Assembly (NCBI RefSeq): GCF_040218215.1
Contig: NZ_JAVJQL010000030.1
Coordinates: 1,823 to 65,822, forward strand
Direction of reading: 5' to 3'
DNA: 64,000 nucleotides
From: Fulvivirga sp.
GTDB lineage: Bacteria > Bacteroidota > Bacteroidia > Cytophagales > Cyclobacteriaceae
Positions 15,968 to 16,330 of the stretch are shown here, in pieces. A program made the position numbers and the translations under genes. The notes beneath the pieces are model-generated. The model made no database searches and was not told the origin of the DNA. It saw nothing but the letters and a program-made list of their open reading frames with translations. The number at the start of each line of letters is the position of its first letter. Within the stretch, counting starts at the first letter, position 1.

Positions 15968-16330
15968 TGTGGATAAGTAGCGAGTAACTTGTTAGTAAAT
16001 TCAAACTTCTTCACAGTTACACCGTTACCATTCTATATCAGGTAAGAACTTAACACCTAACTTAAAAGAACTAACAAGTTAACACCAACTTATGAACAGC
16101 AACTGACAAAATAGTTTTATCCACAAAAGTGAAAAGTTATCACCATTCACCATATAATATCCTGTAAATCAATTATTTATATAATATAAAAATGTGGATA
16201 ATGAGTACATAACAAATACACTTTTCTACACAGAACATATGCAAACTATTTTTAAATTTCTTTTCCACGTATCCACATGCTAATAATTGATAATAATTTA
16301 TTTAATTAATATATATATTAAAACTAACGT
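15968..16330. other. Probable chromosomal replication origin (oriC)
   Basis: Perfect TTATCCACA boxes at 15968-15976(-), 16117-16125(+) and 16193-16201(-); one-mismatch TTWTNCACA boxes at 16007, 16090, 16224, 16261 and 16269; IHF consensus at 16167-16179; AT-rich tract at 16281-16325; close to parS and mnmG. Confidence 0.85.

Follow-up and report, generated by a model that had tools for sequence, protein, structure and literature searches.

Is an intergenic region that carries a cluster of DnaA boxes, and that is flanked by neither dnaA nor dnaN, the place where the replication of a Fulvivirga chromosome starts? The window considered here (the whole stretch of DNA that was analysed, 64 kb long, C18:1823-65822) comes from a draft genome of 5.12 Mb in 30 contigs, and the candidate oriC takes up the entire 372-bp intergenic region (15968-16339) between the gene for a protein with a Big_5 Ig-like domain and the gene for a TPR protein (Table 1). 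The bacterium is a marine member of the Bacteroidota, and homologs of the flanking proteins place it in Fulvivirga, close to F. lutimaris (Cytophagales). An earlier note on this DNA had proposed a probable oriC unlinked to dnaA at this place, and the proposal is supported by the analysis: judged from sequence, the region is very probably the chromosomal oriC of this Fulvivirga species. This reading rests on four lines of evidence, namely the uniqueness of the box cluster, its conserved architecture, an AT tract beside a pair of tandem boxes and a switch of the GC skew in two complete congeneric genomes.

The locus and its DnaA boxes

The neighbors of the region are indeed an Ig-like protein and a TPR protein, as had been said, rather than dnaA and dnaN. 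Both identities are borne out by Pfam matches, whereas dnaA (C1:211424-212800, in the middle of its contig) and dnaN (on C2) lie off the contig of the window. The geometry of the contigs places dnaA at least ~147 kb from the locus, and the genome-wide scan for perfect boxes detects no DnaA-box cluster near dnaA. A classical origin-proximal marker that went unmentioned in the earlier note, mnmG (gidA), is located two genes, or 2.6 kb, upstream of the candidate oriC. This linkage recalls the gidA-oriC arrangement of E. coli and the predicted origins of Blattabacterium. The mnmG gene is part of a ~9-kb run of genes on the plus strand (7217-15967; DUF4175-like, HATPase, YbeY, MnmG, methyltransferase and Big_5) that is aimed into the putative origin, head-on to a leftward fork.

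Table 1. Features of the candidate oriC and its surroundings, from left to right, in window coordinates.
Feature	Position	Strand	Remarks
mnmG/gidA gene	11488-13350	+	Transcribed toward the candidate origin; Pfam GIDA, E = 3.8e-166
Big_5 Ig-like domain protein gene (left flank)	14231-15967	+	Pfam Big_5, E = 1.2e-19
Perfect DnaA box (TTATCCACA)	15968-15976	-	Abuts the Big_5 stop codon; position in the genus, ~-372 to -377 relative to the TPR start
Perfect DnaA box (TTATCCACA)	16117-16125	+	Kept at ~-223 to -226; local conservation peak of 0.81
IHF-consensus-like motif (AATCAATTATTTA)	16167-16179	+	Core TCAR-N4-TTA partly conserved; conservation 0.76
Perfect DnaA box (TTATCCACA)	16193-16201	-	Kept at ~-147 to -151 from the TPR start
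Weak DnaA box (TTTTCTACA), 2 mismatches	16222-16230	+	Terminal ACA invariant in the genus
Tandem co-oriented boxes, TTTTCCACG (2 mismatches) and GTATCCACA (1 mismatch)	16261-16277	+	One base shared; conservation 0.95
DnaA-trio-like tract	16280-16298	-	Conserved pattern AATA..ATAATA..TT; orientation rule from PMC7561715 and PMC8287927
AT-rich candidate DNA unwinding element	16281-16323		43 bp with a single G; dG -33.3
Very weak reverse box, 3 mismatches	16330-16338	-	Partly conserved GTGTRNA immediately 5' of the TPR start
TPR protein gene (right flank)	16340-18178	+	Transcribed away from the candidate origin; Pfam TPR families
Perfect DnaA box (TTATCCACA) within the TPR gene	16515-16523	+	On the invariant peptide IPLIHNN

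The box scan recovers the three perfect boxes that had been reported in the interval and the fourth one inside the TPR gene. Altogether, the window contains seven perfect boxes where 0.66 are expected, a number that is reached in none of 100 shuffles, and 4 of the 68 perfect boxes of the genome fall within 556 bp at this locus. Nowhere else in the genome do three or more perfect boxes fall within 600 bp, and the cluster also scores highest genome-wide. When up to two mismatches are allowed, 10 boxes are found in 386 bp; for comparison, random genomic windows hold 1.61 +/- 1.26 such boxes (maximum 8, n = 3000). The tally of five one-mismatch boxes given previously has to be revised: under the strict TTATCCACA consensus, the interval includes one box of this kind (GTATCCACA, 16269-16277) and six boxes with two mismatches, and the earlier figure fits only the relaxed consensus TTWTNCACA, which yields six one-mismatch sites. 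Over the whole window, the number of one-mismatch boxes is near the chance level (26 versus 20.7 expected). The three perfect boxes that lie elsewhere in the window (32471-32479, 45114-45122 and 56815-56823) are all on the minus strand and all within long ORFs; compared with the ~0.8 expected outside the cluster, they represent a mild enrichment near the putative origin that is possibly due to chance.

Conservation across Fulvivirga and other Cytophagales

Homologous loci were located via the orthologs of the TPR gene, in 30 of the 31 relatives searched. The adjacency of the Big_5 and TPR genes is conserved across Fulvivirga, and in the alignment of 16 species of the genus, the distances of the boxes from the TPR start are preserved, at about -372 (minus strand), -223 (plus), -147 (minus) and -79/-71 (plus), over a background identity of ~50% for the region and 40-47% for the left flanking protein. 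Synteny of the interval in Cytophagales had been put forward as a check; the architecture of the interval is conserved genus-wide and, in part, across the order. The sliding conservation profile, calculated for ten less-redundant species, peaks at every strong box and at the TCAR-N4-TTA motif. The highest peak (16257-16301) attains an identity of 0.80-0.95, which exceeds that of the neighboring coding sequence, and nowhere is the region better conserved than in the block of tandem boxes (16261-16277), near-invariant in the 16 species.

Outside the genus, several other families of Cytophagales (G023, G024, G027 and G029) have dense box clusters 5' of the TPR ortholog, and 4 of the 12 other families have no boxes upstream of this gene. 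At L022, L023, L027 and L030 (G022, G021, G019 and G030), the TPR ortholog is kept with essentially no DnaA boxes upstream. In the box-less families, either the origin has moved away from the TPR ortholog or the boxes follow a different consensus. The array in G024 (L024:3440-3910) consists of 13 perfect and 11 one-mismatch boxes in ~470 bp, partly arranged in 11- and 20-bp tandem units, and is followed by an AT-rich tract with the triplet phase NAN on the top strand. The exact tandem string TCCACGTATCCACA was considered as a potential hallmark of the phylum and rejected: among 400 Bacteroidota genomes, it occurs in 4 genomes outside the genus versus 3 hits for the control pattern, that is, at the chance level, so that the exact string is genus-specific. 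A separate observation concerns the 6.4-Mb Fulvivirga genome G012, where ten sites on contig C1 (e.g. 25724-26326 and 908910-909512) carry ORFs, nine of 252 and one of 280 amino acids, with weak matches to the DnaA family; these are probably IS21-type IstB ATPases, which would mean an expansion of insertion sequences in this genome.

The alignment also bears on the extent of the origin. In a bipartite or extended origin, the box at 16515, together with other boxes nearby, would act jointly with the intergenic cluster as an additional module for DnaA binding. Such an organization appears unlikely: the in-gene box (at +175 from the TPR start) is perfect in 7 of the 16 species, which span the genus, and this is more than codon usage suggests, but the site sits on the peptide IPLIHNN, which is invariant, and in the other species the synonymous positions vary freely. 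The three additional perfect boxes of the window, which might be counted as further parts of an extended origin, are intragenic and 16-40 kb off. As an origin element, the 16515 box is mostly explained away by the invariant peptide; judging by the alignment, its role in the origin is doubtful, and a minor one is possible.

The IHF-like motif and the candidate unwinding module

Between two of the strong boxes, the earlier note had seen a perfect IHF consensus. The match itself stands, AATCAATTATTTA being an exact instance of the consensus WATCAANNNNTTR, whereas the significance attached to it does not. The window contains 7 matches to this consensus versus 8.4 expected, so they are no rarer than chance would have it, and the genome encodes a single protein of the HU/IHF family (C20:650721-650987), for which the himA and hip models give 35.8 and 59.3 bits, respectively, compared with cut-offs of ~120 bits. 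By this profile scoring of the sole family member, the genome harbors no ortholog of IHF-alpha or IHF-beta. A classical IHF site is rejected on both grounds, the chance frequency of the consensus and the lack of IHF orthologs. The partial conservation of TCAR-N4-TTA suggests that something other than classical IHF binds or bends the DNA there, and the motif, placed between the second and third boxes, may be where the single HU-family protein bends the DNA, or a site for a nucleoid-associated protein.

Among the 40-mers of the 64-kb window, the AT stretch to the right of the tandem boxes (16281-16323; 43 bp, 98% AT) has the lowest stability (dG of -33.3; window mean, -49.8 +/- 3.4), and genome-wide it ranks third in this respect. 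The top strand reads CTA ATA ATT (16280-16288), then a G, then ATA ATA ATT (16290-16298), so that the bottom strand is 3'-GAT TAT TAA-5' and so on. The trios are separated by 2 nt from the proximal tandem box and by 10 nt from the distal one. The published search rule for the basal unwinding system (BUS) combines a DnaA box with at most two mismatches, ideally in a tandem co-oriented pair, a spacer of at most 16 bp, at least three 3'-NAN-5' trios and AT-rich DNA after them (PMC8287927). In Fulvivirga, a tandem co-oriented pair of boxes with no more than two mismatches lies within 16 bp of the trios, as this rule has it (PMC8287927). At least three consecutive 3'-NAN-5' triplets are found on the strand complementary to 5'-TTATCCACA-3', although AT-rich DNA satisfies the NAN rule easily; the orientation of the trios was checked against the example of C. 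difficile (PMC7561715). With the strict form of the rule, 3'-[G/A]A[T/A]-5' plus a GC cluster (PMC7561715), the first trio, 3'-GAT-5', alone fits, and the spacer is just TG(C).

The first trio varies among the species, reading CTA, GTA, ATA or TTA, with a C in the middle position in two of them. In G024, which belongs to another family, the tract that follows the boxes shows the opposite-strand pattern. A promoter -7 element (TAnnTTTG) was tried as the cause of the conserved tract after the boxes and discarded, given the misfit of the motif and that most species have no TTG at this place.

The order of the elements and the strand on which they lie match the basal unwinding system, and on this resemblance a mechanism of the unwinding-module type is rather probable. 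Under this scheme, DnaA would occupy the three strong boxes, which alternate in orientation, several weak boxes and the tandem pair at 16261-16277; an oligomer of DnaA-ATP would grow from the tandem pair onto the adjoining trio-like tract; and the AT stretch just upstream of the TPR start would open for the loading of the helicase. Binding of DnaA, the site of unwinding and the firing of replication are all predicted to be at this locus. A more specific version, which is put forward tentatively, is that the near-invariant block 16261-16323, made up of the overlapping tandem boxes, a T-rich, degenerate trio tract and the extreme AT stretch, is a working Bacteroidota BUS with a deviant trio code (3'-TAT/TAA-5'), maybe aided by a sequence-preferring HU-type protein at TCAR-N4-TTA instead of IHF. 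If true, this would give a phylum with almost no origin biochemistry a compact and comparatively defined model origin in Fulvivirga and other Cytophagales.

Strand asymmetry, alternatives and known origins

On its own 90-kb contig, the locus shows no switch of the GC skew; gene strand dominates the noisy skew there, no more than 18 kb of left arm is available, and the coding-strand skew of the plus-strand run at 7217-15967 masks the sign that would be expected. The contig being uninformative in this respect, two complete congeneric genomes, G001 and G018, were sampled instead, so that the skew values come from sampled stretches rather than from a whole-genome computation. In G001 (4,035,963 bp), where the homologous cluster occupies 832.6-832.9 kb, the sign flips at 830-855 kb, with a local cumulative minimum at 850-855 kb, and a terminus-type switch lies at 2.82-2.85 Mb, the antipode. 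The skew of this genome is negative in 28 of the 32 20-kb stretches sampled from 2.85 Mb via zero to 0.85 Mb and positive in 25 of the 28 sampled from 0.85 to 2.82 Mb. In G018 (4,137,993 bp; cluster at 712.9-713.3 kb), the local cumulative minimum extends over 712-726 kb and the terminus-type switch falls between 2.62 and 2.80 Mb (antipode at 2.78 Mb); positive skew prevails between ~730 kb and 2.6 Mb and negative skew between 2.8 and 3.6 Mb, with positive values again in the samples taken at 3.8 and 4.0 Mb. A skew minimum elsewhere had been named beforehand as a finding that would speak against an origin here; in both genomes, the switch occurs within ~0-20 kb of the homologous cluster, and the sampled stretches show no flip at dnaA, which is located at 4 kb in G001 and at 1,680 kb in G018. 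The distance between dnaA and the cluster in four complete genomes is 0.83, 0.97, 0.90 and 1.32 Mb, or 14-23% of the chromosome.

The cumulative minimum of G001 is ~20 kb off the cluster, and therefore, the skew localizes the origin to about +/-20 kb only, a range within which the cluster is the sole candidate. The plus-strand gene run probably also accounts for the ~20-kb shift of the G001 minimum. This resolution bears on a different assignment, under which the cluster would serve the TPR gene as a promoter or operator controlled by DnaA, or else would be a datA-like titration site near the origin, with the true unwinding site elsewhere in the ~20-kb zone of the skew minimum. Box clusters of this sort close to an origin are known from E. 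coli. Although the region doubles as the promoter region of the TPR gene and the minimum of G001 is at 850-855 kb rather than at 833 kb, this assignment is quite improbable, considering that the genome contains no alternative cluster of perfect boxes that could be the real origin, that the extreme AT tract directly adjoins the near-invariant tandem pair and that the skew minimum of G018 starts at the cluster. A functionless chance aggregation of boxes in AT-rich intergenic DNA, with which the chance-level frequencies of one-mismatch boxes and of the IHF consensus in the window would agree, is opposed by the excess and local concentration of perfect boxes and effectively refuted by the retention of their positions in 16 species over a background of ~50% identity.

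Identified as an oriC, the Fulvivirga region resembles the predicted Bacteroidetes origins in DoriC and Ori-Finder, in that DnaA boxes of the E. coli type are clustered between genes at a GC-skew transition, far from dnaA (PMC4755523). In Bacteroidetes, according to DoriC, oriC is commonly far from dnaA, and the predicted oriC of Prevotella intermedia OMA14 is likewise located at a skew transition far from dnaA (PMC4755523). The oriC of Cytophaga hutchinsonii, by the accounts of Xu 2012 given in PMC3531139 and PMC4009838, has been confirmed with replicative oriC plasmids, and the Blattabacterium origins have been predicted beside gidA (PMC4009838). The novelty implied by the earlier note is overstated, therefore, because an oriC far from dnaA has already been reported as common (PMC4755523) and that of C. 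hutchinsonii has been confirmed; in the light of these prior origins, the identification is sound, both the type of origin and its phylum-level peculiarity are familiar, and the general picture is unchanged. No description of the Fulvivirga Big_5-oriC-TPR locus was found in the searched literature, and what is new here is the genus-wide map of elements and the conserved candidate unwinding module.

The assignment fixes the origin for this draft Fulvivirga genome and, by homology, for the genus. It can be used to orient genomes, in replichore analyses, to estimate growth rates from metagenomes (peak-to-trough ratios) and to construct oriC shuttle plasmids as for C. hutchinsonii. In the 16-species alignment, conserved elements stand out against spacer that drifts, which provides a mutagenesis map for a possible Bacillus-type unwinding module in Bacteroidota.

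Among the well-studied origins, the closest parallels to the individual elements come from B. subtilis and E. coli. The BUS of B. subtilis (boxes 6 and 7; PMC6669920, PMC8287927, PMC10721633) shares with the Fulvivirga block the tandem co-oriented boxes, the short spacer, at least three NAN triplets and the AT-rich tract; the first Fulvivirga trio is the consensus 3'-GAT-5', and conservation within the origin is highest in this block, as in B. subtilis. The differences are that the later triplets of Fulvivirga are 3'-TAT/TAA-5' rather than 3'-[G/A]AT-5', that the GC cluster is down to 2-3 nt, that one base is common to both boxes (8-bp register) and that the putative origin is not beside dnaA.

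The gidA-oriC-mioC region of E. coli provides the second comparison. As in E. coli, the Fulvivirga origin lies apart from dnaA and near mnmG/gidA, its perfect boxes are the same TTATCCACA, and an IHF-consensus-like motif is found between two strong boxes, comparable to the IHF site between R1 and R5M. In E. coli, the distance between dnaA and oriC is ~42 kb, whereas in the complete Fulvivirga relatives, dnaA is 0.8-1.3 Mb from the origin. Unlike in E. coli, mnmG is two genes off and transcribed toward the origin, genes for IHF-alpha and IHF-beta are lacking, and the candidate unwinding element is at the end opposite to the box that neighbors the IHF-like motif.
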